Assembly: GCA_043780835.1 (NCBI GenBank)
Contig: JAYWCB010000005.1
Location: 125,945-189,944, forward strand
Direction: 5' to 3'
Length of the DNA stretch: 64,000 nucleotides
DNA from: Minisyncoccota bacterium
GTDB lineage: Bacteria; Patescibacteriota; Minisyncoccia; Phycocordibacterales; UBA2100
Shown here piece after piece: positions 11,798 through 47,345 of the stretch (its first letter is position 1; the number at the start of each line of letters is the position of its first letter). The position numbers and the translations under genes are program-made. The notes beneath the pieces were generated by a model. It searched no databases. It saw only the letters and a list, made by a program, of their open reading frames with translations, and was not told where the DNA came from.

Positions 11798-13930
11798 ATG
11801 GATCACTCACATCACAACCATGGCGAGCATCATACAGATTCGACTGGAGAATCGTATAGCTGCCCCATGCACCCGGGAGTTGTGCAAGACAAACCAGGTA
11901 TGTGCCCCGAGTGCGGCATGAATCTTGTGCCTATAAAAAAGAAGTCGGCTGCGGAAATGAGTGAAATTAAGCACGTTGGTCACAACACCTTTTCATTTTT
12001 GCAGAAGTTCTGGATTTCACTTGCGCTCACCATACCCATCTTCTTTTACTCAGAAATGGCGCTATCGGTCTTTGGAATTCACGGACCTGAGTTCCCCGGA
12101 TGGCAGTACGTACTACTCTTGCTCGGATCAGCTGTATTTTTTTACTGTGGATGGATCTTTCTTAGTAGTGCATACCGTGAGCTTCGGGCACGGATGCCGG
12201 GAATGATGACGCTGATCGCACTTGCGATCATTGCGGCATATCTGTATAGCTTCTTCTCTATCATCCTTGGAACGGGTCACGATTTGCTTTTTGAACTCTC
12301 AACACTGATAGCCATTATGCTTCTTGGCCACTGGATCGAGATGCGCTCGGTGCAAGGTGCCAAAGGAGCTCTTAAAGAACTAGCTAAACTTCTCCCCGAT
12401 ACCGCAGACGTAATCCGCAACGGTAAAACCGAAACTGTCTCACTGAGCGACCTGCGTGCAGGCGATAAAGTGCTCGTTAAACCGGGTGCAAAAATTCCGG
12501 CTGACGGACGAATTGTTGAAGGACAGTCAGAAATAAACGAGGCAATTATCACCGGAGAATCGAAACCTGTTTCTAGAACGACGGGAGCACAAGTTATAGC
12601 TGGCTCTATTAATGGAGACGGAAGCCTCACGGTTGAAGTAACACATATTGGCGACAAGACTTTTCTGGCAGGAATCATGCGACTTGTCGCTGATGCCGAA
12701 GCGTCTAAATCCAAATTGCAGATGCTCTCGGATCGAGCAGCGTTTTATCTCACCATTATTGCGATTGTCGCAGGAGTCACAACATTTATTGCATGGCTCT
12801 TGGCAAACGCAGGCGTAGGAACTGCTACAGAGCGTCTTGTCGCTGTTCTCGTCATTACGTGTCCTCACGCCCTGGGTCTAGCAATTCCGCTCGTTGCGTC
12901 GATCTCTACGACCATGGCTGCACGAAATGGACTCTTAGTGCGCCGCCGCATGGCTCTGGAAGAAGCCCGAAATATTAATACGGTTTTATTTGATAAGACA
13001 GGCACCCTGACTAAGGGAGAATTTGGCATAGACGCGATTGTTGCAAACGAAGGTGTTACGGAGGAGCAAGTCCTCAAAACGGCCGCCTCAGTCAATAGTC
13101 AATCAGAACATCCATTGGCTAGTGCAATGGTCAAAGAGGCGCAAAAAAGAAACATCGCTTTGATTGGTATAAAAGACTTTGCACGTATTGGAGGCCGCGG
13201 CGCAAAGGCGCAGATGGAAAATAGCGAAGTGTATGTTGGCAACGAATCTTTTCTTGCAGAAAATAATATACAAGTACCATCAGAGTATCAAAACAAAATA
13301 GATATCCTCTCAAAACAAGGAAAAACGGTGATATTTGTTGTCGTTGATAAAAAACTCATCGGTAGCATCGCGCTTGCCGACGTTATTCGAGAAGAGTCAC
13401 GAGAAGCAATTAAAACCCTTAAGGCTCTTGGTATTCGTACCGCTATGGTTACGGGCGATTCCGAAGATGTTGCCGCGTGGGTAGCCAAGGAAATAGGTAT
13501 TGATGAATATTTTGCAAAAGTCATGCCTGACCAAAAGGCAGAAAAAGTAAAACTTCTGCAAAGCAAAGGCCAAAAAGTAGCTATGGTCGGCGACGGGGTG
13601 AATGATGCGCCCGCGCTTACGCAAGCAGACCTTGGTATAGCAATCGGTGCAGGTACAAATGTTGCGATTGAGTCAGCGGGAATTATCCTCGTAAAAAGTG
13701 ATCCTCGCGATATCACGAAAATCTTTAACCTATCGCGCCTTACCTACAACAAGATGATCCAAAATCTTTTCTGGGCTACAGGCTACAACGTCGTGGCGAT
13801 TCCCTTGGCTGCCGGAACGCTCGCGTCGTACGGAATCATTCTGCAACCCGCACTTGCTGCCGTGTTTATGTCAGTAAGTACCGTGATAGTTGCATTCAAC
13901 GCAGTGCTATTGAGACGACAAAAAATCTAG
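11798..13930 (+). CDS. copB: copper-translocating P1B-type ATPase, CPH (CopB/P1B-3-like) subtype with His-rich and CxxC N-terminus
   Basis: N-terminus MDHSHHNHGEHH + YSCPMHPGV..CPECGM; TM CPH motif (ITCPHALGLA); DKTGTLT, TGD, GDGVNDAP motifs. Confidence 0.85.
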   Translation: MDHSHHNHGEHHTDSTGESYSCPMHPGVVQDKPGMCPECGMNLVPIKKKSAAEMSEIKHVGHNTFSFLQKFWISLALTIPIFFYSEMALSVFGIHGPEFPGWQYVLLLLGSAVFFYCGWIFLSSAYRELRARMPGMMTLIALAIIAAYLYSFFSIILGTGHDLLFELSTLIAIMLLGHWIEMRSVQGAKGALKELAKLLPDTADVIRNGKTETVSLSDLRAGDKVLVKPGAKIPADGRIVEGQSEINEAIITGESKPVSRTTGAQVIAGSINGDGSLTVEVTHIGDKTFLAGIMRLVADAEASKSKLQMLSDRAAFYLTIIAIVAGVTTFIAWLLANAGVGTATERLVAVLVITCPHALGLAIPLVASISTTMAARNGLLVRRRMALEEARNINTVLFDKTGTLTKGEFGIDAIVANEGVTEEQVLKTAASVNSQSEHPLASAMVKEAQKRNIALIGIKDFARIGGRGAKAQMENSEVYVGNESFLAENNIQVPSEYQNKIDILSKQGKTVIFVVVDKKLIGSIALADVIREESREAIKTLKALGIRTAMVTGDSEDVAAWVAKEIGIDEYFAKVMPDQKAEKVKLLQSKGQKVAMVGDGVNDAPALTQADLGIAIGAGTNVAIESAGIILVKSDPRDITKIFNLSRLTYNKMIQNLFWATGYNVVAIPLAAGTLASYGIILQPALAAVFMSVSTVIVAFNAVLLRRQKI

Positions 13931-13963
13931 TATGGCAAATTACTCGCAAAGAATTCTTAAAAT

Positions 13964-16543
13964 ATGAATACCGAAAAACTTACAGAACGCTCGCGAGAGG
14001 CACTAGAGAGAGCGCTTGATATCGCACACAGCGCGCGGCATTCGAGCATTGAACCGATGCATCTCCTTGCCGCTCTTCTTGAGCAGAACGATACGGTGGT
14101 TCGCCCTCTTATTGAAAGTCTGAAAATTGATGTTGAGGGACTCCGCGATACGGTAGCAGCAGCACTTAGTCACTTGCCCATTCTCCAACACGACACGTCG
14201 CCGAGGCTCTCGCCCGAATTACAGCAGGTGCTAGAAAAAAGCGTTACAGAAGCTGGGGCACTTTCGGACAGCTATGTAAGCACCGAACATCTGCTCCTTG
14301 CAATTCTCGACGTTGCAAGCAATACAAAGGTGATTTTGAACGAACTTGGTGCGCGATACGCAGATATTAAGAGCAATCTTCCGAAAGTCCGCGGCGCGGG
14401 CAACGTACATGATCCAAATCCTGAAACAAAATATAATGTATTAAAAAAATACGGACAGGATTTTACAGAACTCGCTCGTCAGGGAAAACTCGATCCAGTC
14501 ATCGGGCGAGATGACGAGATCCGTCGCGTGATGCAGGTGCTTTCACGCCGCCGCAAGAACAATCCGGTCCTTATCGGAGAACCCGGCGTTGGTAAGACGG
14601 CAATTGTCGAGGGGCTGGCGCAACGGATAGTTTCGGGAGACGTACCTGATTCGCTCAAGAATAAGCAGCTACTTGGCCTTGAGATCGCATCGCTGCTTGC
14701 TGGCGCAAAGTTTCGTGGAGAGTTTGAGGAGCGTCTACAGGCGGTGCTCAAGGAGGTGGAGAAAGCGGAAGGAAGCATCATCTTGTTTGTCGACGAATTG
14801 CACACGATTGTTGGCGCTGGAAAAGCGGACGGCGCGGTCGATGCAGCAAACATGCTCAAGCCACTTCTTGCACGCGGGAAACTTCATATGATCGGCGCAA
14901 CAACCTTGAACGAATATCGCCAATACATCGAAAAAGACCAGGCGCTTGAGCGAAGGTTCCAGCCAGTATTCGTCGGGGAGCCGTCTATAGAAGACACTAT
15001 CGCAATATTGCGGGGTCTCAAGGAGAAATACGAAGTGCATCACGGCGTAAAGATTACGGACGAGGCCCTCGTAGCCGCCGCACGGCTCTCTGAGCGGTAC
15101 ATCACCGAGCGATTCCTGCCGGACAAAGCGGTAGATCTTATAGACGAAGCAACGTCAACGCTTAAGATGGAAATTGAGACCATGCCTATTGATCTTGATG
15201 CGATGCATCGCAAGATCTTGAAGTTTCAGATAGAAAAGGAGGCGCTCAAGAAGGAAAAGGGCGCCGAGAGCAAAAGCCGACTCCAAGAGGTCGAAAAAGG
15301 CATCGCGTCACTCAAAGAAGAATTCGACGGGAAAAAGGTTCGATGGGAAAAGCAGCGGGAGCTTGTAAGGAAACTTCGAGCACTTTCAAAAGACATCGAC
15401 GAGTTACGAATACAAATGGAGCGGGCGGAACGCTCCGGCGATCTCTCCCGCGCGGCCGAGATCCAATACGCTACGCTTCCCGAAAAGCAGAAGGCGATCA
15501 AGAATGTAGAGAAAGAAATTAGCGCTATTCCGGAAGCAGAGCGCTTGGTCCGCGAAGAAGTAACCGAAGAAGATATTGCTCGCATGGTGGCACGCTGGAC
15601 AGGGATACCTGTTTCGAAACTTTTAGAAACCGAATCGCACAAATTGGCTCACCTCGAGGAAGAGCTCTCGAAGCGCGTGGTGGGACAGGAAAAAGCGCTG
15701 TCCGCAGTGGCGCGCGCGATCCGTCGCGCACGAGCTGGCCTCAAATCGAAAGGTCACCCTATCGGCTCATTCCTATTTCTCGGCCCTACGGGCGTGGGAA
15801 AGACTGAATTATCACGAGCGCTCGCGGAAATTCTTTTTGATAACGAAGACGCGGTCGTTCGGATAGACATGAGTGAATATATGGAACGTCACTCTGTGTC
15901 CCGGCTCATCGGAGCTCCGCCCGGGTATGTCGGATATGAAGAAGGAGGTCAGCTTACCGAGCCGATACGACGACGTCCCTATGCGGTCATACTTATCGAT
16001 GAAATTGAAAAGGCACATCCCGATGTCTTCAACGTCCTCTTGCAGGTATTGGATGCGGGCAGACTCACCGATGGTCAGGGTCGTACCGTCAATTTCACAA
16101 ACACGCTTATTATCATGACCTCCAATCTGGGAAGCGAGTTGCTGCTCGAAGAGAAAAACGGAAAAGACGTTGAACGCGATGTAATGGCCATTGTCCGAAA
16201 AAATTTCAGACCGGAGTTCTTAAATCGCATCGATGAGATCGTTTTCTTCAACGCTCTCGACAAAGCGGTACTGAAAGAAATCGTCACACTTCAAGTCAGC
16301 GAGCTTCTCCGGCTGCTTCTGGAAGAAAAGAGAATCATCCTTGATGCAGATAGCTCCGTGTACGACCTGTTACTCAAAAAAGGATACGACCCGGCATTTG
16401 GGGCTCGTCCGCTCAAGCGAGCCATACAAACGGAACTCATGGACACGCTTGCTATGGCGATCATTGATGGTTCTATCGCCGAAGGTGATCGGGTCAAGGC
16501 GACGGTGGATAAGGGGGGTGAAATTATCTTCAAGAAAAAATAA
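13964..16543 (+). CDS. clpB: ATP-dependent chaperone ClpB
   Basis: 859 aa, two AAA+ modules (GEPGVGKT; GPTGVGKT), coiled-coil middle domain, ClpB N-domain. Confidence 0.9.
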
Positions 16544-16545
16544 TA

Positions 16546-16958
16546 TGGATACGTTTCTAACCCAAAAACAACAGATCGTGGTACGAGGACTTCTTGAAGA
16601 TTCCGGCGAAATTCTGATTACTGTAGACCAAAGATATGCACCATCATATTTAGAGTATTACAACCTACCGGGAGGAGTGGTTCCATTCGGTCGCGAACCT
16701 GCCGAAGTTCTTCAAGATATCTTTTTTGAACAAACGCATGTTCGCGTAAAGGTAGATGCACCGCTGCGCACCATAAACAGGATCCTTGATCGTGGTAGCA
16801 GCCAGATACTTGAGATCATTTACCGTGTGGAGAAACAGGAAATTCAGAGCGTTGCATCGCAAAAGTCGCAATGTCTTTGGGTACAGATTGATGAGAGAGG
16901 ATATTTCTTGTCCAGCTGTATTTCAGAGACGCTCAGTGACTTCAGAAAAGAAAAGTAA
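16546..16958 (+). CDS. NUDIX-fold-like protein with degenerate Nudix box
   Basis: Starts right after clpB stop; LPGGVVPFGREPAEVLQDIFFEQT resembles the Nudix box but lacks REx2EE glutamates; table ORF 16341.. is an over-extended start inside clpB. Confidence 0.4.
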
Positions 16959-16974
16959 GCCGAAATAGTATTCT

Positions 16975-17724
16975 ATGGATCCTTCAATGATAATGACAAA
17001 TACGAATAAAAGCGGTTCGTTTTTGGACACCGCGCTTGTCATTTGGTTTATTCTTACTGCGATCTCGGTGGTCTACGTTGCATGGGATGCGTATCACAAT
17101 AATCCCGAGTTGAAAGTAATGCGTGTTGGATGGATTCTCGTAACCGCATACACAGGAGTCATCGGTGCCGCCTTGTATGTGCTGTCTTGCAAACCGCCTA
17201 AGGTTAGTGAGCACGAGAAATTTATTGCACCTGTATGGAAACAGTCGCTTGGTTCCACAATTCATTGCATGGCAGGAGATGCGACTGGAATCATAGTTGC
17301 GGCAGTCATTACGGTGGCGCTGGGGCTACCAATGTATCTCGATGTAGTCTCAGAGTACTTTTTTGGGTTCGCCTTTGGCCTGCTTATCTTCCAAGCGTTG
17401 TTTATGCAAAAAATGCTTGGTGGCAGTTACGTCGCAGCAGTAAAGAAATCTTTTATGCCCGAATGGCTCTCCATGAATGCAGTCATGGCAGGCATGATAC
17501 CCGTGATGGTTATTCTCATGAGTTCGGACATGAGAGCAATGGAGGCAACGGACATCAGGTTTTGGGGTGTGATGTCTTTGGCGACCTTGGTTGGACTTGT
17601 CATCGCGTACCCCATCAATTGGTGGCTCGTAGCCAATAAGCTAAAGCATGGCATGGGAACAGAAGCAGTGATCGGCAAAGGAGGAGAAAAGCAGAGTGTA
17701 AATCAAAGTGGCATGCAAATGTAA
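16975..17724 (+). CDS. DUF4396-like membrane protein
   Basis: Multi-TM with GSTIHCMAGDATG motif; sits in copper gene array. Confidence 0.45.
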   Translation: MDPSMIMTNTNKSGSFLDTALVIWFILTAISVVYVAWDAYHNNPELKVMRVGWILVTAYTGVIGAALYVLSCKPPKVSEHEKFIAPVWKQSLGSTIHCMAGDATGIIVAAVITVALGLPMYLDVVSEYFFGFAFGLLIFQALFMQKMLGGSYVAAVKKSFMPEWLSMNAVMAGMIPVMVILMSSDMRAMEATDIRFWGVMSLATLVGLVIAYPINWWLVANKLKHGMGTEAVIGKGGEKQSVNQSGMQM

Positions 17725-17753
17725 CTTATAAATTAATAAATATAGATAAGAAT

Positions 17754-17981
17754 ATGAAAAAAAACGAAACAATGAACTCGCTAGCAAGCAAAACTGAAGC
17801 TGCATTCGACAAGGCTTTTATCGTGGCAATGACGGCGCACCACAACGAAGCAATTGCAATGGCTAAAATTGCGGAGAAGAAAAGTAAACGCAAGGAAATA
17901 CTAAAACTTGCAAAAAATATTATTACAGCTCAGTCGAAGGAAAATGCACAAATGAAAGTATGGAAATCTGAGTGGAAATAG
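17754..17981 (+). CDS. DUF305-like small protein (paralog of 2312..2536)
   Basis: FDKAFIVAMTAHHNEAIAMA...MKVWKSEWK; immediately upstream of multicopper oxidase. Confidence 0.55.
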   Translation: MKKNETMNSLASKTEAAFDKAFIVAMTAHHNEAIAMAKIAEKKSKRKEILKLAKNIITAQSKENAQMKVWKSEWK

Positions 17982-17991
17982 TCTGCTAAAG

Positions 17992-19677
17992 ATGGCGAGA
18001 AAAATGAAACGTAATATGAAAAACAAAGCAATGAAAATGAAAAAAGGAAATGTGACGAGGGCGCAGCTCATGGCGGTGACGGTGCTATCTCTCGCAGCGC
18101 TCACTATCGGCGTATTCATCTCTGGAATCTTTGGCAACTTCTCCATGCGTCCAGGTGACATGAGCGGCACTCAACGGGGTCCTTTTTCGCAATCTACTAC
18201 AGGTCTTAGAGAGGCAACCTCTTCTGAAGTGGTTGAGCTAAAAAATGGCTACACCTACAGTCTCACCGCATCTATCGTGAAAAAAGTAATCGGTGAGACA
18301 GCAGTAAAAATGCTCGCATATAACGGCATGATCCCGGGACCGCTGCTAAAGATTCCTCAAGGTGCGGAAATTACGGTGAATTTCAAAAACGAGACTGATG
18401 TTCCAACCACACTTCACTCTCACGGTATCCGCTTGGAAAATGCCAATGATGGTACGCCTCCGATAACGCAAAAGGAGGTACCGCCAGGCGGCTCTTTTAC
18501 GTACAAGATCAAATTCCCCGATGCTGGGATGTACTGGTACCATCCGCATGTACGCGAAGATTATGCACAAGAACTCGGCCTCTACGGAAATTATTTAGTG
18601 ACGCCGGCGAGCCCGAACTATTGGAATCCTGTCAATCGCGAAATGCCCCTCATTCTTGATGATATTTTAATTGAAAATGGTGCAATTGCCGCTTTCGATA
18701 GAAAAACAGCAGATCGCACGCTTATGGGCCGGTATGGAAATACCTTTCTAATCAATGGCGACGATCGCTACAGTCTGCAAGCAAAAACAGGAGAAGTGAT
18801 CCGCTTTTATGTCACGAACACTGCTAATGCCAGGCCATTTAACTTCGCTATATCGGGAGCAAAAATAAAACTCGTCGGAAGCGATAGTGGTGCATATGAA
18901 AAAGACCAGTGGATCGACGCCGTAACGCTGGGACCATCAGAGCGTGCCGTAGTAGAAGTACTATTCGATAAAGCTGGAACATATGCGATTCAAAACAAGA
19001 CACCGGATATAACGAATCAACTTGGCACCGTGATTGTCTCAGGAAGTCCGATCACCCCATCGTATGCACGCTCCTTTGCAACCCTTGCGACTCACATAGA
19101 TGTTGTTAAAAGCATCGACCACTTCCGAGCGGATTTCAGCAAACTGCCGGACAAGCAACTCAAGCTAACTGTGGACTTAAAGGGCGCTATGTCGAGCATG
19201 ATGAACAGCGGAAACAGCATGGCCGGGATGGATATGAGTGGAGGCTCGATGGCGATGGGGGCGCCAAAAGACGGCATCGAATGGGACGACACGAGCGGAG
19301 GTATGGGACAGATGAATCAGATGTCGAATGCAGATACCGTTGCGTGGAAAATAGTTGATACGGGAACTGGTAAGGAAAATATGAACATCGATTGGAACTT
19401 TAAAGTCGGTGACAAAGTAAAAATACGAATCACGAATGACCCGAACTCACCGCATCCGATGCAACACCCCATACACTTCCATGGCCAACGATTTTTGGTA
19501 CTTGATCGCAATGGTGTCGAACAAACGGATCTCGTATGGAAAGACACGGTACTTGTTCCTTCAGGTCAGTATGTCGATATTCTCCTTGATGCGTCCAACC
19601 CTGGCACATGGATGGCGCACTGTCACATCGCAGAGCACCTTGAGGCGGGCATGATGTTTAGCTTTACGGTCAAATAA
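17992..19677 (+). CDS. multicopper oxidase (CueO/laccase-like) with Met-rich segment
   Basis: HSHGIRL, WYHPH, HPIHFHG, HCHIAEHLEAGMM copper-site motifs; Met-rich MSSMMNSGNSMAGMDMSGGSMAMG insert; N-terminal signal/TM. Confidence 0.85.
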   Translation: MARKMKRNMKNKAMKMKKGNVTRAQLMAVTVLSLAALTIGVFISGIFGNFSMRPGDMSGTQRGPFSQSTTGLREATSSEVVELKNGYTYSLTASIVKKVIGETAVKMLAYNGMIPGPLLKIPQGAEITVNFKNETDVPTTLHSHGIRLENANDGTPPITQKEVPPGGSFTYKIKFPDAGMYWYHPHVREDYAQELGLYGNYLVTPASPNYWNPVNREMPLILDDILIENGAIAAFDRKTADRTLMGRYGNTFLINGDDRYSLQAKTGEVIRFYVTNTANARPFNFAISGAKIKLVGSDSGAYEKDQWIDAVTLGPSERAVVEVLFDKAGTYAIQNKTPDITNQLGTVIVSGSPITPSYARSFATLATHIDVVKSIDHFRADFSKLPDKQLKLTVDLKGAMSSMMNSGNSMAGMDMSGGSMAMGAPKDGIEWDDTSGGMGQMNQMSNADTVAWKIVDTGTGKENMNIDWNFKVGDKVKIRITNDPNSPHPMQHPIHFHGQRFLVLDRNGVEQTDLVWKDTVLVPSGQYVDILLDASNPGTWMAHCHIAEHLEAGMMFSFTVK

Positions 19678-19680
19678 TGT

Positions 19681-20328
19681 ATGTGTTTCTCTGCGACAGC
19701 AAGTTTCGTAGCTGGAGGGGCGCTCAGTGCGGCGGGAGTTTTGACGATTGCGCAGGTGAAGAAGAAATCCGAACTACCCTTTGCCAGTATTCCGCTTTTG
19801 TTCGGAATCCAGCAGGCTATTGAAGGAGTGGTGTGGGTTTCTTTTGGTTCCCCAATTTTGAATGCCATAGCCACGTACGGATTCTCTTTGTTTTCACATG
19901 TCCTCTGGCCGATACTTATTCCTGTTTCGGTTTTGTTGATGGAGACAGATGAGACTCGTCGGAAAATTCTGTGGGGCTTTTCAGGCATCGGCATCGCTGT
20001 CGGATTATATCTTCTGTATTTCATCGTCACCGAGCCGATTACATCGCAGATTGTAAATAACAGCATCGCGTATAATTCTCCTCATCTTTTCTTGTATCCG
20101 ATGCTTGCACTGTATCTGGCGGCTACATGTGTCAGCTGTTTCTTTTCCAGCCATAGATTTATAAAAGTATTCGGAGTTTTCGCACTCATATCTGCGTTTA
20201 TTGCAGCATGGTTTTTTAGTGAGACATTTCTATCCGTGTGGTGCTTCTTCGCAGCAATTCTGAGCGTACTAGTCTTCTGGCACATCAAAAGAAAATCTGT
20301 TGCCGTAAGGTTAATCAAAACAGGTTAG
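19681..20328 (+). CDS. hypothetical polytopic membrane protein
   Basis: Starts 4 nt after MCO stop; 6 predicted TM. Confidence 0.4.
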   Translation: MCFSATASFVAGGALSAAGVLTIAQVKKKSELPFASIPLLFGIQQAIEGVVWVSFGSPILNAIATYGFSLFSHVLWPILIPVSVLLMETDETRRKILWGFSGIGIAVGLYLLYFIVTEPITSQIVNNSIAYNSPHLFLYPMLALYLAATCVSCFFSSHRFIKVFGVFALISAFIAAWFFSETFLSVWCFFAAILSVLVFWHIKRKSVAVRLIKTG

Positions 20329-20362
20329 TTATCAGTTCATTTAATAAATAAAAGTAAAAATT

Positions 20363-20584
20363 ATGAAACTATCAAAAGTAATGCACGTAGTTAGTGTTGT
20401 TGTGGGGGTTGTTGGAGTAGGTATGTTTGTTGGTGCAATTCGGATCGGGTCGAACAAAATGGTATATGGGATCACAAAGATGAACGCACTTGCGTGCGTT
20501 GCCATCCTCATTCTAATCGCTACGTGGCTTCAGATTGCGACGATCCATCACATGATGCTTGAGAAGAAAGGAGAGATTGTCTAG
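20363..20584 (+). CDS. small hypothetical membrane protein (73 aa)
   Basis: Two hydrophobic helices; weak. Confidence 0.3.
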   Translation: MKLSKVMHVVSVVVGVVGVGMFVGAIRIGSNKMVYGITKMNALACVAILILIATWLQIATIHHMMLEKKGEIV

Positions 20585-20595
20585 AATTTGTACCC

Positions 20596-20961
20596 ATGGA
20601 CATCGGCAATTTGCTCAAGCTAGCGATTCCTCTTTTTGTCGCCCATGCGATAGAAGAGTATAGTACCGGCCTTCTTGGCCTCGACCCTCTCTTCCGTTCC
20701 ATAACCGCGCACCATTTGCCCACAATTACTCTATACATTGTCGAACAGTTACTATTGGTAGCAATTTTGCTGTGGACAATTTATCAACCGAAGCGATGGC
20801 TTCTGGTTTTTATCGGACTACTCTTTATTTTCGAAGTGAGTCATGTCATTCCTGCGTTAGCCCAAACGTCGTATTACCCAGGGCTTGTAACAGCGATACT
20901 ATTGCTTCTTTTGGGACTTTTTTATTGGAGGGCCGTAATGATACGATTTACCAGGAGGTAA
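20596..20961 (+). CDS. HXXEE-domain membrane protein
   Basis: VAHAIEEY (H-x-x-E-E) motif in first helix, 4 TM. Confidence 0.55.
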   Translation: MDIGNLLKLAIPLFVAHAIEEYSTGLLGLDPLFRSITAHHLPTITLYIVEQLLLVAILLWTIYQPKRWLLVFIGLLFIFEVSHVIPALAQTSYYPGLVTAILLLLLGLFYWRAVMIRFTRR

Positions 20962-20998
20962 GGTAATCTTGTCTTGCGCTTCTTAATACATACAAACC

Positions 20999-21517
20999 AT
21001 GAATACAAAAGTCATTATTGGTCTCGCGGCGGTCGTTCTTATTACGGGTGGTGCGTACTATTTTTCAACGACAAAAACGGGCGACTCTTCGGGCATGAAT
21101 ATGACACCCGAGCAGAGGGCGGCCATGCATCATTCTTCCGGTAATGCTTCCAATACATCGCCGATGCTCGCTGAGCCGAATGCTGTCGTAGTGACTGATC
21201 AGCGACCAGGTAAGGTGGTAACAGGCACCGTGTATCTTGCAGCTCCCGGATATCTCGTTATCCACGACGAGTCAGGCACCGTGCTTGGATCAAGTGCACT
21301 TCTCCCCGCAGGACAAAGTAATAACGTCAAAGTAGTGCTCTCACGTGCAAGCAAAAACGACGAGAAGCTCATGGCCATGCTGCACTCAGATACAGACGGC
21401 AACGGTTCGTTCGACGCATCGAAGGATGTGCCCGTCCAGAGCAAGCTTGGCGGAGCCATTCAGGGCTCTTTCCAGGTGTCATCAAGAGCGGGCGCAAACA
21501 CCCCGGTGAGCATCTAA
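20999..21517 (+). CDS. membrane-anchored periplasmic hypothetical protein with Met/His motif
   Basis: N-terminal TM, MTPEQRAAMHHSSG; beta-rich remainder. Confidence 0.4.
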   Translation: MNTKVIIGLAAVVLITGGAYYFSTTKTGDSSGMNMTPEQRAAMHHSSGNASNTSPMLAEPNAVVVTDQRPGKVVTGTVYLAAPGYLVIHDESGTVLGSSALLPAGQSNNVKVVLSRASKNDEKLMAMLHSDTDGNGSFDASKDVPVQSKLGGAIQGSFQVSSRAGANTPVSI

Positions 21518-21566
21518 CTTCTGGCGAAACACTGCTAAATATTCCATCTTAATTTTAGAACTTGAT

Positions 21567-22292
21567 ATGGTCATCCTCATTGCAATTGCTGCATTCTGTT
21601 CAACACTTTTGGGAGGCTGGTTTGCGCTTCGCCTCAAAGATCGTTTACATCTCATTCTTGGATTCAGTGCGGGAGCTGTGATAGGCGTCGCTTTCTTCGA
21701 CCTTATACCGGAAGCGATTGATCTTGTGGGAAAAAGCAATGGAACGGCATTCGCCACTTCCATTATCGCTTTTGGTTTTGCCCTATATCTGGCGCTCGAC
21801 AGACTCTTTGTTTTGCATCGACATCACGAAGACGACACGCACGAGCACGCACACTCCGAGCGCGGTGTATGGGGTGCGAGTACGCTTTCACTGCATAGTT
21901 TTCTTGATGGAGTTGGTATCGGTCTTGCTTTCAAAATTTCTCCTGCGATCGGTCTCGTCGTTGCTGCGGCTGTTTTAGCACATGATTTCTCCGACGGCAT
22001 CAATACGGTAAATATGATTCTGAAGAATGGTGGCAAACGAAGACGTGCTTTGCGCTGGCTTATTATTGATGCTCTTGCCCCCGTAGCAGGTGTTCTCATC
22101 ACCCTTCTGTTTTCTGTTACAGAAGGAAGTCTGGGCATTCTTATCGCGCTTTTCTCTGGTTTCTTTCTGTATATAGGAGCAAGCGATCTTCTACCAGAAA
22201 GCCACCATGCACATCCTAAGCGCTGGACGACCATCTCAACAATTGCTGGCATGGGATTTATCTACACCATCATTAAATTAGCCGGAGCCTGA
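21567..22292 (+). CDS. zupT: ZIP-family metal (Zn/Fe) transporter (ZupT-like)
   Basis: HEDDTHEHAHSE His-rich loop, HSFLDGVGIG and HDFSDGINT signature helices. Confidence 0.8.
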   Translation: MVILIAIAAFCSTLLGGWFALRLKDRLHLILGFSAGAVIGVAFFDLIPEAIDLVGKSNGTAFATSIIAFGFALYLALDRLFVLHRHHEDDTHEHAHSERGVWGASTLSLHSFLDGVGIGLAFKISPAIGLVVAAAVLAHDFSDGINTVNMILKNGGKRRRALRWLIIDALAPVAGVLITLLFSVTEGSLGILIALFSGFFLYIGASDLLPESHHAHPKRWTTISTIAGMGFIYTIIKLAGA

Positions 22293-22317
22293 TACGTATA
22301 TCTCCTGATACGTCTAC

Positions 22318-23454
22318 CTAATGACGATGGGACGAGTGCCCGCTGCTCGAGGGTTTTGAATTGCCTGAAAGCATATATGTCGCGATCAGCGTTGTGATTG
22401 GAACGCCGAGGACAAGTCCGATCGAACCGATAAGAATACGCACGATCTCGGTTGCGAAGATCTCGTTATTGATCGCATAGCCGACACCGTACGTCGCGTG
22501 TTGTACGAGGAGCAACAAAGGCAGTGCTGCTCCTACATACGCAATGGCAAGTGTATTCACGAGAGCGCCAATGTGTTCTCGACCGATTCGAATTGCGCGT
22601 TCATATACCTGAATACGAGTCATGTGCACACCAGCTCTGAATAATTCTTCTACCGCTATCGCTTGTCCGATCGCGATATCGTACAAAACACCCAGAAGGC
22701 CGATCATGATCCCGCCATAGAGAAGACCGACGAGATCTATTGAACCGTTCGTGCTAAAGGTGAGATATCGCGATTCTTCGTTGTTATATCCGGTCAACTG
22801 CGCCGCATGCACTACGTAATAAGCACCAAGACCTGTTATCAATACGGTACCAATCATGCCCAAAACGGCGGCTGTTGTGGTGCGGTTAAAACCGTGCGTA
22901 ATATATGAACCGGCAACGATAATAAGAGATGAGACGCCAATACTTACAAAGATTGGCGAATAACCGTGGAGCATACCTGGTAGGAGTACGTAGAAAATCA
23001 AAATAAGACTTCCACACAAACTCGCGAATCCTCGGATGCCCTGAGTGCCACCAAAAATGATTATGAGGACAAGGAACGCGGCGGCAAGCCCCCAGAGCAC
23101 ATTGAGTCGGTACGGATCGGATACCGAGTAGTAATCCACTGGATCCACAGAGCTCGTTGTATGGCGAAGATAAAATATATTTCCTACAGACATTTGAATG
23201 TATTCGTTATCGAATGTGACGACCGATCCAGCATCAGGTCCATCAAGAACTTTTACCCTGAGAGTTTGCATCTTCGTAGACTTGTCTGTTCCCAGAAGGG
23301 CCGTTTCCTTTTGATTCGTCACTTCAAGCACCTGTGCCTTTTGAATTGTTACCGTGTCCTGTACAAGTTCCGACTGAGCGTATGCAAAAATGGGACTCAA
23401 TAATTGAAGCGCCAAAATGAGGAATGTAATATTTTTCGCCACTTTCATAACCAC
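22318..23454 (-). CDS. YibE/F-family-like membrane protein
   Basis: Signal peptide + ~120-aa extracytoplasmic domain + 6-7 TM; family call from memory. Confidence 0.45.
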   Translation of the reverse strand: MVMKVAKNITFLILALQLLSPIFAYAQSELVQDTVTIQKAQVLEVTNQKETALLGTDKSTKMQTLRVKVLDGPDAGSVVTFDNEYIQMSVGNIFYLRHTTSSVDPVDYYSVSDPYRLNVLWGLAAAFLVLIIIFGGTQGIRGFASLCGSLILIFYVLLPGMLHGYSPIFVSIGVSSLIIVAGSYITHGFNRTTTAAVLGMIGTVLITGLGAYYVVHAAQLTGYNNEESRYLTFSTNGSIDLVGLLYGGIMIGLLGVLYDIAIGQAIAVEELFRAGVHMTRIQVYERAIRIGREHIGALVNTLAIAYVGAALPLLLLVQHATYGVGYAINNEIFATEIVRILIGSIGLVLGVPITTLIATYMLSGNSKPSSSGHSSHRH

Positions 23455-23645
23455 TAGTATACGCTCAACGTTTGGTTTCCATGGCTCTTATTCTAGTATA
23501 TTTGCCTGTTGGTAAGTCCCTTCGCAAAACCCTGAAATCTGCTAGGGTGCAAATTGATAGCCTAAAGTGCTATCATGTTCTTGCAGACAATTAAATAAAA
23601 GCCGACCTAACCCCTTTGGAATTTCCAGAGGATATGGTTGCAAAC

Positions 23646-23797
23646 CCCGCTAGAGATCAAAGGACTCCTCGTCAGAGTCACTCTAGCGGGTTATATCGGG
23701 AAACCGGTATAGGTGGGAGCCGAAAGGTTCTCATCGCGATGGCGAGGGGCCTTTTGATTACCTGAAGGTTCCCACCACTAAAATCCCGCTAGATTTT
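23646..23797 (+). promoter_or_regulatory. structured 5' leader with mutually exclusive helices (possible cis-regulatory RNA) upstream of 23798 gene
   Basis: CCCGCTAGAG (23646-55) and CCCGCTAGA (23785-93, followed by TTTT and the ATG) can both pair with CTCTAGCGGG (23681-90); internal GAAA-tetraloop hairpin and GGTGGGA..GGTTCCCACC helix. Confidence 0.3.
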
Positions 23798-24394
23798 ATG
23801 GCTACGAAGTTTCTCTACTCCGCTACCGGAGTAGCTGTTCTCGGTTTTGTTTTATTGCTAGTCATCGGCCTGAATACGCCTCAGCCAATTAAACAGGCTC
23901 AGCAAAGCGCACTCATGCAAAATCCTGTAGTTGTCGCAACCTCGTCTGCTCCGGACAATCAGAAAATTGCTGCGATTCTTTCAGCAAGCGTTACATATTA
24001 CACGCAGTTATTTGTCACGGGTAAAGCAGCACTTGGCACCGCGCAGTATGCAGACGCGAACGCGGGACTAAAAGCATTTAATGATCCGAATTCTGCAGCT
24101 GTTCACTTCGGTACGTTCAGAACAAACACGTGCCTCAAAAATGATCCTGGGGCGAATGCGATAAGCGCATACCAAGAGGCCGATAATTTATACACAGACT
24201 CCTCACCAGACGCTCTAAGTAAATGGAACGAAGACATCAACAATACGGCAAGCGATATCTGTCTCTGGGCTGCAGATGCAGTTGGCTGGCAAATCAAGGA
24301 AATATCAAGCGCCAAATTACATACCGATGAACAGAAGGTTTCTGAAGATATTGCCAAAGCAGAGGTAGACATTAAGCAGATACCGGCCAAGTAA
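23798..24394 (+). CDS. hypothetical secreted/membrane-anchored protein
   Basis: N-terminal TM/signal; Ala/Ser-rich; no domain recognised. Confidence 0.45.
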   Translation: MATKFLYSATGVAVLGFVLLLVIGLNTPQPIKQAQQSALMQNPVVVATSSAPDNQKIAAILSASVTYYTQLFVTGKAALGTAQYADANAGLKAFNDPNSAAVHFGTFRTNTCLKNDPGANAISAYQEADNLYTDSSPDALSKWNEDINNTASDICLWAADAVGWQIKEISSAKLHTDEQKVSEDIAKAEVDIKQIPAK

Positions 24395-24445: not shown

Positions 24446-24634
24446 ATGGCAATTCTCTCAAAACAAAGCGCTACAGAACTTCGCCGTATCATCAAGGAGG
24501 CTACAGGTCGCAACATTTCAGTCGGCGAAGCGTATGCCATCTGGCACTATCTTCTGAAACTACTACAGTTACTGTGGAGGATAGAAAAGAGACAAAAAAT
24601 CCAACCGCAATCAGATCAGTTGAGTCTTTTCTAG
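24446..24634 (+). CDS. small hypothetical ORF (62 aa) at edge of phage-derived segment
   Basis: ORF only; contains the ATAGAAAAGAG repeat. Confidence 0.2.
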   Translation: MAILSKQSATELRRIIKEATGRNISVGEAYAIWHYLLKLLQLLWRIEKRQKIQPQSDQLSLF

Positions 24635-26178
24635 AAAATACCAGGAATTCTCGAACGAACAGTAATTTCTGTATCGGGATCAATAATGTCATCCGGAAAC
24701 CGTCTCGGTGTACCGTACGATGTTGGACCACGCCAGGTGTCGCTACTACTGTATCCCATGAATTTTGTAAGATGAATGACGAGCATGGTGAGAGCGTCAC
24801 AGAGATCATCGTGATTCTCTAACCCAAAATTGACGGCTTGGTTAATGATCTCTTCGCATCCTCGATGGAATACTATCTGCCCATTTTGAATCAGTGCACC
24901 AATGCTCATAAGGCGCTGCTCCTTGCTTCCGTATATGTTGGGATAGAACTCAGATACCGGATAGCCTTGGTGATTGAGGTCTTGGAAGATATATACCTGC
25001 GCCTGCACTGCCTCTACAACGATTTGAGTTCTCAGGCCAGCAGCTCCCTTAGTCGATATTTCTTTTATCTTTTTAATAATATCTCCGAAGTCGAGTCGGT
25101 CGTTATAGTAGATGGGCGAGATATAAATCTTCGCCTTGTTGCCTGACCCATAGAGATGGCCATGCACGATCGCAGTAGGGTCAGTGCCTTCTTTGTTCTT
25201 CGTACCCGGATCAACGGCAGTCACAGACATCCGGTATCGGAGAACGGGATCATTTTTATCAGGGAGAACGTCGTAGTACGTAATCCAGTCGCGTTTGATG
25301 ATCTGGTCATCATCAGCGATCACTTGCAGCAGGTACTCGCGGAACCACGTCTTGTCATTACCAATGCGCTTACGTTCGGCTTCAATTTCTGCCATCGTCG
25401 GAAATTTACCTGGCCACATACTCTCGCCGTTGCGACCTATAAGCACATACTCTCGGTAGATGCCTGTAGTCATACCGTCGCCGATCTCTTGCTTGAGTCG
25501 CATGACAAGACAGTGTTCGTGTAAGACGTTCCCAATCACGATGAATCGTGTGCGTTTCGATCCGAGCGGCATAACCTCGCCTTTGAACCAGTTATATATC
25601 TTCTCTCGACCTTCTTTCGTACGTGCCGACTGAAGGTCCTCGGGGTCATCGATAATCACGAGATCTGGGCGATGTTGGAGATGCTTGATGCCTCGAATAG
25701 CCTCACTGACAGAGGCTACTGAGATACGTGCTCCAAGCTTAGTGAAGACTATGGTGGATGCGCCCCATGTGTCTGTTTCCTCCCGAAATGGCCCCAGCGT
25801 GCGCCGCAGAACCTCATTGTGCTCAAGAGCACCACGCAGGTTCATCATGTGCTGTTTTGCCTGGCTCTGGGTTTGAGCGACTATGAGCACGAACTTCTTT
25901 TGCTGGATACCCAAGATCGCCCACAGCACATACGAGAGTGTAAGCAGTGTACTTTTCGCACTGCCACGAAATGCGACAAGGCACAGTAGATTCCAGTCCG
26001 TCCGCTCGGTAAGTGCAAATATCTCATACTGGAACGGAGCTGTTTCGTACTCGACGTATTCTGCAAAGAAGATGTTGAAAAACCATAGGTGAGATCGTCG
26101 AGTCACGTAGCTTCGCACGAGTTTGTTCTTGCAGATCATTTCAAGAACGTCCTGCCGGAGTGTTTTATTGCTTTTCAT
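24631..26178 (-). CDS. phage terminase large subunit (Terminase_6-like ATPase + RNaseH-like nuclease)
   Basis: Deviant Walker A AFRGSAKST, Walker B LVIIDDPED, C-terminal nuclease Asp cluster (AVDPGTKNKEGTDPTAIV). Confidence 0.75.
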   Translation of the reverse strand: MKSNKTLRQDVLEMICKNKLVRSYVTRRSHLWFFNIFFAEYVEYETAPFQYEIFALTERTDWNLLCLVAFRGSAKSTLLTLSYVLWAILGIQQKKFVLIVAQTQSQAKQHMMNLRGALEHNEVLRRTLGPFREETDTWGASTIVFTKLGARISVASVSEAIRGIKHLQHRPDLVIIDDPEDLQSARTKEGREKIYNWFKGEVMPLGSKRTRFIVIGNVLHEHCLVMRLKQEIGDGMTTGIYREYVLIGRNGESMWPGKFPTMAEIEAERKRIGNDKTWFREYLLQVIADDDQIIKRDWITYYDVLPDKNDPVLRYRMSVTAVDPGTKNKEGTDPTAIVHGHLYGSGNKAKIYISPIYYNDRLDFGDIIKKIKEISTKGAAGLRTQIVVEAVQAQVYIFQDLNHQGYPVSEFYPNIYGSKEQRLMSIGALIQNGQIVFHRGCEEIINQAVNFGLENHDDLCDALTMLVIHLTKFMGYSSSDTWRGPTSYGTPRRFPDDIIDPDTEITVRSRIPGIF

Positions 26179-26614
26179 GGTCTTGTTTAAGTTGGCTTAG
26201 GCCTTCTTCCAAAACGAGCGATGAGAGCCGCAATGCTTCTTCTGCCGCAGCTTGCTCCTGTACGGTAAGGTCTTCGCGCGTATGGTGAATGTTTCCGCTT
26301 ATCTCCAGTTTCGATGAATACGCGGGGTGATGCGTCTTGAGCCACAGCGAAATGGCCGACATGTTTTTGTCTCGAATGGCAGATACTAAAAATCCTTCCG
26401 CGACATCATTTACTAGAAGTGACCCGTCGTAGATCGCTTCGTCCGCTGCCTTTGCGAATTCCGGATCTTCTTTGCGCCATCGATAATAGCTGGCGCGTCC
26501 GATGTTTGCTTTCGCGCATGCCATCTCGACGATAGGGGTGGACTTTAGATGTTCGAGTAGAGTTTGCTTGTCCCGGGCGACTCGTTTTTCAACTGCTGTT
26601 TGTTTCTGTTCCAT
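26165..26614 (-). CDS. terminase small-subunit-like HTH protein
   Basis: HTH segment IGRASYYRWRKEDPEFAKAADEAI typical of phage small terminase/HTH_23-like proteins; overlaps terL start by 14 nt. Confidence 0.5.
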   Translation of the reverse strand: MEQKQTAVEKRVARDKQTLLEHLKSTPIVEMACAKANIGRASYYRWRKEDPEFAKAADEAIYDGSLLVNDVAEGFLVSAIRDKNMSAISLWLKTHHPAYSSKLEISGNIHHTREDLTVQEQAAAEEALRLSSLVLEEGLSQLKQDHEKQ

Positions 26615-26615
26615 A

Positions 26616-27890
26616 TTATATTTTCTTCGCTTTGATACCCGTCAGTGCCTCGAAGCGGTTTTTGATGAGATCACAAAAGATCGGCTCTACCTCAACGAGA
26701 TATGCTGAGCGTTTGAGCTGTTCACAGGCCACCAATGTGCTTCCAGAGCCGCCGAACAAGTCCAATACAACATCGTTTACCTTTGAGCAGCGCTTCAGTG
26801 CCTTTTCGTGGAGCGTAGGTGGCTTTTCGGTTGGATGGGTGTATTGCTGTCCCGGCAGGCGTTTGACGAGCCAGATGTCGAGGAGGCTGAGAACATCTTC
26901 AATGAGGTCATTGCCGGTGCCGATTTCTTTATTCATTACTTCGGTAAGATTGTAATGATTCTTGGAAAGATAGGGCGATCCGCGAGTTCCATACACGCAT
27001 GGTTCGTACACCTTGTTGAATGCAACCTGAGGTACAACATTCTGATTATTTTTAATCCATAAACAGGTGCGCTTGTTCTCAATACCGAGCGAGTGATATA
27101 TGTCTTGAATCATTCCGACATAATTCTGGTCACACCAGTAGAAGTAGTGAGCGTCGCTCTTTGAAAAAGTAATAGCGTTTTGTATTGTCTTCTTTAGGAA
27201 TAGTTGGTATTCATCGAACGATTTATTGTCGTCTGTCTTGCCACCGTACTTTCCCTTAGTACCGACTCCCTTGTCGTAGCTGAGGTTTATATTAAAAGGT
27301 GGATCTGAATACGTGACATCCACCTTTGTATTGCCCAGAAGTTTTTTGAGAGACTCTGGATTAGTCGAGTCTGCGCAGATCAGACGGTGTCGCCCAAGCT
27401 GATACATTTCTCCTAGCTTCGTAACTGGTTTCTTTATCGCTGTGAGTGCCTCGTCCACGTCGAATGAGTCATCTTTTATTTCGAGTGCTTCATCCCAAAT
27501 GTTGTCGAGCTCCTCCGTGCTGAACCCGATGTCGGCAAGAAGGCTTGTATCGAACTCCCGTAGCTTCTCAATATCCCAGGCTCCGACATTTTTATTCAAT
27601 CGAATATTGAGTATCTTCTCTTTCTCAATATTAGGTATGTCGAGGAAGATCACAGGCACTTCTGTATACCCGAGGTCTTTTGCGATCTTGAGGCGAAAGT
27701 GACCCCCGATCACCGTGAACTTCCGCTTCGGTGCCTTGTTTACCAGAATCGGATCAACAAAACCATTCTGTGTGATGCTTTCTGTAAGTTGTGATATTGC
27801 CGAGGTATCCCACGTGCGCGGGTTATACGCAGCGGGCTTTAGAAGATTTATAGGTACGTACTCAATTTGGAGATTATGTAGTTTGGTCAT
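26616..27890 (-). CDS. ParB-like nuclease N-terminal domain fused to DNA N6-adenine/N4-cytosine methyltransferase
   Basis: N-terminal ParB/Srx motif (IIGGHFRLKIAKDLG), motif IV SDPPF then C-terminal motif I LDLFGGSGST (beta-class order). Confidence 0.75.
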   Translation of the reverse strand: MTKLHNLQIEYVPINLLKPAAYNPRTWDTSAISQLTESITQNGFVDPILVNKAPKRKFTVIGGHFRLKIAKDLGYTEVPVIFLDIPNIEKEKILNIRLNKNVGAWDIEKLREFDTSLLADIGFSTEELDNIWDEALEIKDDSFDVDEALTAIKKPVTKLGEMYQLGRHRLICADSTNPESLKKLLGNTKVDVTYSDPPFNINLSYDKGVGTKGKYGGKTDDNKSFDEYQLFLKKTIQNAITFSKSDAHYFYWCDQNYVGMIQDIYHSLGIENKRTCLWIKNNQNVVPQVAFNKVYEPCVYGTRGSPYLSKNHYNLTEVMNKEIGTGNDLIEDVLSLLDIWLVKRLPGQQYTHPTEKPPTLHEKALKRCSKVNDVVLDLFGGSGSTLVACEQLKRSAYLVEVEPIFCDLIKNRFEALTGIKAKKI

Positions 27891-28249
27891 GTCTCTTTAG
27901 CTATGTAGTAATAGAAAAGAGCCGAGTGATCTGGCTATTGCTTCCTGATGCGGAGCCTCATCAGTACTCTAATTCGACCTACTTATGATTGGTTAACTGC
28001 TAAACTCCTCGGGCTCTTCTCGATAGAAAAAGTCTAAACGAGCTGACTGTTTATATCCGTACGAAGACCGTACGAAGGGCGAGCTCTTATAAATAACTAT
28101 ATCGGAACGCACTTCAGGCGATAGGGTTCAAAATAAGGAACTGTGGATAACAACACGCTTGTAATTCCTTGTCAATCCTTGTGAACTGGCGCTTATCCCT
28201 TATAGCCAAGTACGGCCTCTTCGTATAAGTAGAGATATACTGCAACTTA

Positions 28250-28747: not shown

Positions 28748-28941
28748 GAGGCTAAGATACGCGTAGGGACAAGATGGAAAGTAAGACAGATCAAAAGTAG
28801 CCCTTAAAGTAGCCCTTACTGTGTCTCATTTGTCTCATTAACAAAAGTCGACCCTGCTGTTGACTCCTCGGTAAACAACGGCAAAAATAGCCAGAAAACC
28901 CTTGTGGGGCTTGGAGGCCTGAGTACTAACTGCGGACGGCC

Positions 28942-28970
28942 CGCAATGACTCAAAAAACGCGCCGCAGGG
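28942..28970. terminator. bidirectional rho-independent terminator hairpin
   Basis: AAAAAACGCGCC-gcag-GGCGCTTTTTTG. Confidence 0.5.
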
Positions 28971-29317
28971 CGCTTTTTTGATTCATCATTGCGAGTAAGA
29001 GAGAGGGATTTGAAAGCGAGCCCTGGGGCCCCATCAGTAGATGGGGATGGGCGAGCAGGGCTGAGAGGAAAAACTTTGCGACGGCAAAGTTTTGAGCTCT
29101 TGGCCAAATCTCTCTCAAATAACGCCGAGTTGGGGTCGCACAAAATTGCAGCAGCGATTTATGAGTGACCAAATCCCTCTTCATATATCAAGTTCTTGAG
29201 TTGTCACTCCGGAAGCCGGAGCTGGAAAGTGAGCGGAAAATATCATTCAATCGGTAGATCAATGAATGAGTTGTTGTAATCGTGGAAGCATGGCACTGAT
29301 ATACTCAAGCAAACGCC

Positions 29318-47317: not shown

Positions 47318-47345
47318 TCCGCATCAAGGCGTCGCCTTGATATTC
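47318..47345. repeat. REP-like palindrome (left end of RAYT element)
   Basis: GCATCAAGGCG-T-CGCCTTGATAT. Confidence 0.55.

Follow-up and report, generated by a model that had tools for sequence, protein, structure and literature searches.

The stretch of DNA considered here, 64,000 nucleotides (nt) of contig JAYWCB010000005.1 from the assembly GCA_043780835.1 of a Minisyncoccota bacterium (hereafter the window), carries three co-oriented genes that encode a ParB-methyltransferase, a TerS-like small terminase subunit and the large terminase subunit TerL, and around them a small convergent open reading frame (ORF), a non-coding leader region and the RNA motif LOOT followed by a membrane-protein gene (Table 1). 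The trio is an intact, actively conserved copy, under strong purifying selection, of a compact capsid-less packaging cassette that is present in hundreds of genomes of the candidate phyla radiation (CPR), or Patescibacteria. The preliminary description of this DNA had taken the three genes as bearing phage signatures and as standing isolated from any structural genes, and it was right in both respects. The Pfam and PHROGs matches agree with the three assignments. Pfam scans of the whole 64 kb (about 50 ORFs) reveal no portal, capsid, protease, integrase or LexA gene, tblastn with the portal, protease, major capsid protein, serine-recombinase and LexA families from related loci gives no match in it, and the adjacent head, tail, lysis and lysogeny genes by which a prophage is recognised are absent from the window.

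Table 1. Coordinates of the cassette and of the features belonging to it or lying beside it in the window (aa, amino acids)
Feature	Position	Strand	Remark
LOOT RNA (Rfam RF03000)	23604..23732	+	73 bits against a gathering score of 46.4; full-length match, 1-121
198-aa protein, N-terminal membrane anchor (MATKFLYSATGVAVLGFVLLLVIGL...)	23798..24394	+	convergent with terL
Small convergent ORF, 62 aa	24446..24634	+	fourth gene in the block shared with L167; overlaps the stop of terL
Left 11-mer ATAGAAAAGAG	24581..24591		inside the 62-aa ORF
TerL, large terminase subunit, 515 aa, T7-like lineage, intact	24631..26178	-	phrog_38, 1e-78
TerS-like small terminase subunit, 149 aa, N-terminal helix-turn-helix	26165..26614	-	directly upstream of terL
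ParB_N plus beta-class N6A/N4C DNA methyltransferase, 424 aa	26616..27890	-	first gene of the operon
Non-coding leader/promoter region upstream of the methylase gene	27891..28187	-	conserved in locus L167
Right 11-mer ATAGAAAAGAG	27911..27921		in the conserved leader, 21 nt upstream of the methylase start codon

Integrity of the cassette and its counterpart in a second genome

The methyltransferase gene matches PF02195 (8e-13), PF01555 (1e-28), phrog_498 (1.6e-100) and the PADLOC model MTase_II (6.6e-66), and the motifs GGHFRL, DPPF and FGGSGST can be read in its sequence. The TerS-like protein has the size, the helix-turn-helix, the place upstream of terL and the family match that are expected of a small terminase subunit: it matches phrog_4044 (1e-8), phrog_4102 and phrog_24579, and in a sample of its family phrog_4044 is matched by 38 of the 38 members and phrog_309 by 32 of them, most matching three to four further TerS PHROGs. 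With solved structures the TerS family gives no sequence match at E≤0.1, and with the TerS of CPR phages its profile match is weak (hhalign probability 41% over 25 columns).

TerL is missed by Pfam at E≤1e-3 and is detected by PHROGs. In an alignment with 29 homologues that are 43-79% identical to it, the ATPase residues K74 (Walker A, GSAKST) and D176/D177/E179 (Walker B, LVIIDDPED) and the residues D322, E388, D457 and D460 of the nuclease half are all invariant; the intactness of the ATPase and nuclease residues was a check asked for in the preliminary description. The only solved structures matched by the TerL family profile are T7-type TerLs (8dgc and 4bij, in the ATPase region). The AlphaFold (AF2) model of TerL, with a pLDDT of 83.6, matches the full-length TerLs of PhiV-1, D6E, T4 and HK97 (E from 5e-19 to 4e-12) as well as isolated ATPase domains and the isolated nuclease domains of G20c and P74-26, so that sequence and model together give the ASCE (additional strand, catalytic glutamate) ATPase, the RNase H-like nuclease and the two-domain fold of a large terminase subunit. 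The stop codon of the methyltransferase gene abuts the start of terS, and the reading frames of terS and terL overlap by 14 nt. The 62-aa ORF, for which no family match was found, follows TerL directly also in the related loci L167 and L169/L170, and it is called in L001 as well.

The locus L167 lies in the assembly GCA_964841545.1 and has all four cassette genes, with 89-97% amino-acid identity to those of the window. Here a block of 3.74 kb (window 24446-28187) is shared at 84.7% nucleotide identity and its homology ends are sharp, one of them falling exactly at the start codon of the 62-aa ORF. Outside the block the two sequences are unrelated and the gene contexts differ, the exception being one 115-nt non-coding stretch. 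Between the two copies the ratio of nonsynonymous to synonymous divergence (dN/dS) is 0.035 for the methylase, 0.026 for TerS, 0.033 for TerL and 0.081 for the 62-aa ORF, with dS of 0.56-1.64, and there are no frameshifts or stops in either copy. In spite of this dS in the adjacent genes, identity reaches 91% over 230 nt upstream of the methylase; the leader holds the tandem CCGTACGAAG x2 (28057-28077) and a perfect DnaA-box-like 9-mer TGTGGATAA (28143-28151), both of which are kept in L167. Since dN/dS is low despite such values of dS and the leader is conserved, the cassette is not decaying. A structured RNA in the leader was considered and rejected (fold z = -0.58, no conservation in L168).

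The preliminary description had further pointed to an 11-bp direct repeat on both sides of the trio, as no more than suggestive. The repeat does exist, with ATAGAAAAGAG occurring exactly twice in the 64 kb, and a flanking direct repeat of at least 11 nt is found in only 0.2-3% of random same-size blocks of the window, depending on the flank width allowed; the pair is nominally unusual in the window. However, it does not bracket the element, both copies being internal to the 3.74-kb block shared with L167, where one of them has a 1/11 mismatch. Flanking direct repeats are not enriched in 101 homologous cassettes either, the longest ones following the control distribution. Because of its internal position and the missing enrichment across cassettes, the 11-mer was rejected as an attachment (att) site or target-site duplication, and it may be a small regulatory motif or a product of chance. 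Note also that, where the convergent genes end, the left copy forms one side of a local hairpin (24582-24595 / 24620-24633). Positions 24612-24633 and 27912-27933 make up an imperfect inverted repeat of 22 nt, which was considered as a pair of terminal inverted repeats and rejected too: its score is within the top ~5% of controls, it is not kept in L167, and flanking inverted repeats are not enriched in 99 homologous cassettes. The non-coding segment of ~115 nt that window (28842-28958) and L167 (5986-6102) share outside the block has no Rfam match and runs up to a bidirectional terminator (28960-28973); it lies beyond a variable divergent gene, of 165 aa in the window and 452+112 aa in L167.

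A family of capsid-less cassettes and its linked genes

A search with the TerL protein gives 1237 matches, many of them on contigs of 0.2-0.7 Mb, and the species-representative genomes contain at least 492 TerL-related loci. Among the best 80 of these, 61 bear Patescibacteria-lineage names, 8 generic names and 11 other labels (unverified), it being noted that the taxonomic labels of many metagenome-assembled genomes (MAGs) are unreliable. The labels Gammaproteobacteria, Flavobacteriaceae, Bdellovibrionales and Methanoregula stand on L075 (OZ246394.1, 1.61 Mb), L045, L057, L083, L010, L017 and L021; they reflect either mis-binning or mislabelling, or occurrence outside CPR. When the ORFs of 166 loci are clustered, the methylase family is present in 140 (often in two copies), TerS in 138 and TerL in 160. 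The fixed order methylase, terS, terL recurs across the loci, and no recurrent portal, protease or capsid family is found within 10 kb on either side of the cassette in more than 130 loci.

By contrast, in loci with a TerL at most 39% identical to the window's, long co-directional blocks continue after TerL with a portal-MuF fusion, a prohead protease and an HK97 major capsid protein, and for this reason these loci are taken as real phages. The CPR tailed phages among them (L131-L166, from IMG/VR; TerL 30-39% identical) resemble the cassettes in the order ParB or ParB-methyltransferase, TerS, T7-like TerL, and they differ from the cassettes in having the head genes after TerL in one block, in the family of their TerS and in the clade of their TerL. 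In a neighbour-joining tree, 148 cassette-side TerLs (136 cassette-type and 12 unclassified) make up one clade without any phage-type member, and 20 phage-side TerLs form another.

Of the 80 IMG/VR contigs retrieved as 'viral' with the window TerL, the top 44 (L087-L130) are capsid-less cassettes in cellular context, and the viral call on them was probably triggered by TerL alone. In Peribacteria-type cassettes (L049, L061, L090, L094 and L096-L099, the last four being unlabelled IMG/VR contigs of the same architecture) two methylase genes are followed by tandem full-length TerL paralogues, which are 55-58% identical where measured, in L049 and L097. A conserved portal-docking motif at the TerL C-terminus was considered, and the C-termini proved too variable for it to be of use.

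Downstream of TerL, on the same strand, a large serine recombinase with the Pfam domains Resolvase and Recombinase and a zinc ribbon is encoded in 89 of the 108 informative loci (82%), adjacent to TerL in 41 of them and with cargo in between in 48. The cargo slot holds type I, III and IIG restriction-modification genes, reverse transcriptase (RT) with bAvd, which are parts of diversity-generating retroelements (DGRs), secreted nucleases (SNase), and DUF4352 and tRNA_anti-like membrane proteins; DGR parts and type III, I or IIG restriction-modification genes lie between TerL and recombinase in L029, L088, L030, L091, L126 and others. CBASS-like, TIR-like and RT genes are also present in the neighbourhoods of the loci. 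In L033 the recombinase is adjacent to TerL, and in L029, with a core 88% identical, several kb of restriction-modification and DGR genes stand between the two. When pairs of loci with 76-93% identical cores are compared, the homology often stops no more than ~15 nt from the TerL stop or runs into the recombinase, and some of the homology blocks take in LexA on the left. In 22 of 82 loci a LexA homologue of full length (E 4e-22 against solved LexA structures) is encoded upstream in divergent orientation; the DNA that separates it from the cassette has no canonical SOS box, and 4-5 of 23 loci show no more than a weak AGCAA-N4-TTGCT there. Two or three cassettes, with TerLs 44-58% identical in amino acids, are carried by several MAGs or single contigs. 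Among the annotated recurrent neighbours, which leave the small ORF families f8, f19 and f27 without assignment, there is no primase or replicase. One contig of 17,334 nt (L076) has a 44-nt terminal overlap, a weak hint at a circular or terminally redundant molecule; besides TerS, TerL and LOOT it has two methylases and two serine recombinases and, among genes without assignment, one with an Ntox44 toxin domain.

The LOOT RNA and the host chromosome

The LOOT copy of the window scores above the gathering threshold of its Rfam family and has the four-stem structure, a terminator-like hairpin before the ATG and a fold z of -6.8, and it ends 66 nt upstream of the gene for the 198-aa protein, for which no family match was found. 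The same arrangement of LOOT and a membrane-protein ORF occurs in the closest TerL relatives (L002, L004, L168 and L169), LOOT itself being found in L002, L004, L008, L011 and L023, and with a custom covariance model it is detected in ~42 loci, with covariation in 14 of 16 pairs. By our count, 29 of the 42 copies are within 1.6 kb downstream of a cassette TerL, a zone that amounts to ~10% of the DNA searched, and nearly all copies lie 46-90 nt upstream of the same-strand gene of a small membrane-anchored or secreted protein; the LOOT-led genes after TerL in related loci encode DUF4352, tRNA_anti-like, SNase, and zinc-ribbon plus transmembrane (TM) proteins. Relatives of the YibE_F gene, a neighbour of LOOT in the window, have no LOOT upstream. 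Because LOOT lies near membrane-protein genes after TerL, covaries and is followed by a hairpin, and because the YibE_F relatives are without it, it looks like a cis-acting leader in the cargo slot rather than a free small RNA (sRNA). It is also accessory and not core, since L167 is without it. This leader-like position differs from the filing in Rfam, where LOOT is a metagenome-derived sRNA; the collection of Weinberg et al. 2017 (PMC5737381) and PMC7779021 give no context. In the searchable literature we found no description of the function or context of LOOT, which is not proof of absence.

The remaining part of the window is ordinary chromosome, with FtsZ, FtsA, GyrA, ribosomal protein S1, signal peptidase, Pth, pyrF, ClpB and others, and its GyrA shares 82-95% identity with proteins that bear the names Kaiserbacteria, Paceibacterota or Parcubacteria, from which the host is placed in CPR/Patescibacteria as Kaiserbacteria-like. 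A cluster of metal-homeostasis genes (copper P-type ATPase, multicopper oxidase, DUF305-like, DUF4396, DUF6629, ZIP and YibE_F) occupies 11798-23448, the copper-resistance genes in it being at 11.8-20 kb. In at least 14 other loci, homologues of CopA, CuOx, DUF305 and DUF6629 stand no more than 10 kb from the cassette, which suggests a shared island or insertion hotspot. An IS200/IS605-type Y1 transposase-like gene (47324-47995, minus strand, PF01797 1e-7) lies among the housekeeping genes.

In a close relative, with GyrA 95% identical, synteny runs from the response-regulator gene (32040) rightwards, the genes to the left differ, and the cassette region is absent at the otherwise syntenic place. 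When the comparison with the close relative is anchored at pyrF, everything left of ~30.7 kb is not syntenic and no exact junction is obtained. A 77-aa ORF (28951-29184, minus strand) is the leftmost local match to the close relative L178, 69% over 49 aa and within an unannotated gap there, with different flanking genes. The synteny edge coincides with a step in GC content, 0.465 (1-33.5 kb) versus 0.508 (33.5-64 kb), and a large variable island may make up the left half of the window. The surroundings of the window copy are variable and rich in metal-resistance genes, in a chromosome of Kaiserbacteria-like type. Two of the checks proposed in the preliminary description concerned an empty site in relatives and the base composition. 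The relatives of the YibE_F gene in metagenomes show no clean empty site, their upstream synteny not being conserved and their loci having neither LOOT nor TerL. In GC content and codon usage the cassette resembles its host, so that a foreign signal was rejected.

Proposed packaging, alternatives and implications

We propose, with about even confidence, that the three genes form the core of an integrative element that is compact, capsid-less and satellite-like, has its own packaging enzymes and occurs mainly in Patescibacteria. In the canonical layout, a LexA-like repressor, divergent and present in some copies, is followed by a small ORF, one or two ParB-methyltransferases, TerS, TerL, cargo and the serine recombinase. 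The recombinase would integrate and excise the element; upon induction or phage infection TerS would recognise the element's own DNA, and TerL would dock on the procapsids of a co-resident CPR tailed phage and fill them with that DNA, either as concatemers or together with the adjacent chromosome, while the methylase would shield the transferred DNA from restriction. Of this course of events, the packaging into helper capsids, the mechanism of mobility and what the methylase does are inferred, as are the helper and the way in which the element replicates. The window copy would be a recombinase-less version, consisting of the 3.74-kb core (24446-28187) and the module of LOOT and membrane protein (23604-24394), and, being without recombinase and repressor, it would be either a fixed derivative or mobilised in trans.

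Known satellites resemble the cassettes in part. [quoted passage not shown] The CPR family differs in adding its own TerL and the ParB-methyltransferase, in using a large serine and not a tyrosine recombinase (the window copy has none), in having no recognisable primase or replicase, AlpA/Xis or capsid-remodelling gene, and in being found mainly in CPR. With regard to a PICI-like satellite, the window contains its own packaging-redirecting genes, TerS and TerL, without capsid genes, and it contains neither an integrase or recombinase with att sites nor a recognisable replication module of its own. It was shown that PICMIs, of ~6 kb, are packaged as concatemers in full-size helper capsids (PMC10803314). 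The capsid-forming PICIs (cf-PICIs) carry both TerS and TerL and package only themselves (bioRxiv 10.1101/2022.09.08.507074), and in this they are like the CPR cassettes, where both terminase subunits are also element-encoded; by contrast, cf-PICIs encode major capsid, portal, protease and head-tail connector and steal only tails, and none of these genes is in the cassettes. Gene transfer agents (GTAs: RcGTA, BaGTA, PBSX) share with the cassettes a selected chromosomal terminase without a complete self-propagating phage genome. GTAs have one copy per genome, are inherited vertically and keep the terminase inside a complete head-tail cluster or accompanied by one, whereas the cassettes have no structural genes within 10-30 kb, occur in several divergent copies per genome and are linked to recombinases; neither in the window nor in the 10-kb flanks of related loci does a head-tail cluster accompany the terminase.

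The preliminary description had named a prophage remnant as well as satellite, GTA-like and domesticated alternatives. A decaying remnant, that is, the packaging end left over after the loss of structural and lysogeny genes, could account for the order of the three genes, which is that of real CPR phages, and for the missing recombinase in the window. It is evidently inconsistent with dN/dS of 0.026-0.081 and the absence of frameshifts and stops in two copies at such dS, with the intact catalytic residues and fold of TerL, and with the recurrence of the same capsid-less truncation point in more than 130 loci, whose TerLs make up one clade apart from phage TerLs. This explanation is thus largely refuted and, being highly improbable, essentially excluded. 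The other alternatives are viable. If the cassette were a defence module, the methylase would mark self and TerS/TerL would cut or mis-package the DNA of invading phages, mobility being secondary. The methylase in 140 of 167 loci, often duplicated, the location among type I/III/IIG restriction-modification, CBASS-like, TIR-like and RT genes and the strong purifying selection would all fit such a module, as would the fact that known satellites shield their hosts by packaging interference (PMC10803314). The methylase is type II-like, and the only nuclease in the cassette is TerL. Against a defence module, no PADLOC model matches TerL or TerS. To our knowledge, no defence system has TerL as its effector. 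Moreover, since the parental CPR phages already have the ParB-methyltransferase upstream of terS-terL, this order was inherited and does not reflect restriction-modification logic, and the linkage to recombinases and the multiple copies point to an element first. We consider a defence module unlikely, if still to be reckoned with.

A domesticated host function, whether a chromosomal and possibly SOS-controlled GTA-like packaging module with its head and tail genes elsewhere or a terminase co-opted for DNA processing, would be in line with the very wide distribution in one phylum, with purifying selection and host-like composition, with the bona fide LexA homologue standing divergently adjacent in 22 of 82 loci, and with a window copy that has no recombinase at all. 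It is at odds with multiple divergent copies per MAG or contig, with unrelated insertion contexts even for 85%-identical copies, with the absence of the region at the syntenic site of the close relative, with a serine recombinase linked in 82% of loci and with the lack of any recurrent structural family within 10 kb on either side in more than 130 loci; on balance it is unlikely too, and a little more so than defence. The satellite-like or mobile element fits best, because of the serine recombinases, the cargo, the multiple divergent copies and the different insertion contexts, and the 84.7%-identical block in the unrelated gene contexts of the window and GCA_964841545.1 speaks for it.

Several points weigh against the satellite-like element as well. 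In the 64-kb window there is no recombinase or repressor anywhere, and the conserved core holds no recognised replication gene or excisionase. Across the family neither att sites nor terminal repeats nor target duplications can be detected, and no encapsidated or circular forms were found except for the weak hint from L076. An adjacent genuine LexA could mean a host SOS-regulated locus and not the repressor of an element, and the host-like composition is equally compatible with long residence. The closest TerL of an isolated phage is only ~25% identical and no helper phage was identified. Finally, the loci of the family were picked as best matches to a cassette-based profile, and the TerL tree is a neighbour-joining one with midpoint rooting only.

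Whether CPR viruses have satellites has been stated as unknown (bioRxiv 10.1101/2025.02.15.638363), and in the searchable literature we found no description of CPR terminase cassettes, which is not proof of absence. It is possible, and we put this forward tentatively and with clearly less than even confidence, that the cassettes are the first phage satellites of CPR/Patescibacteria and a new class of them, with TerS, TerL and methylase, no capsid or replication genes, a serine recombinase, defence cargo, LOOT leading the genes of surface or secreted proteins in the manner of a riboswitch, and, as packaging would begin within the chromosome, possible lateral transduction of nearby genes, here those of metal resistance, from one ultra-small bacterium to another. 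The family offers a concrete and abundant candidate for such satellites, which is testable with existing viromes and the few culturable Saccharibacteria. Because TerL is used as a viral hallmark, capsid-less cassettes inflate the counts of CPR viruses and proviruses and the virus-host links. LOOT gains a taxonomic home in CPR, a setting in the genome and a cis-regulatory role that can be tested. In genomes where gene flow is very limited, the cassette marks a hotspot at which surface proteins, DGRs and restriction-modification systems are exchanged.

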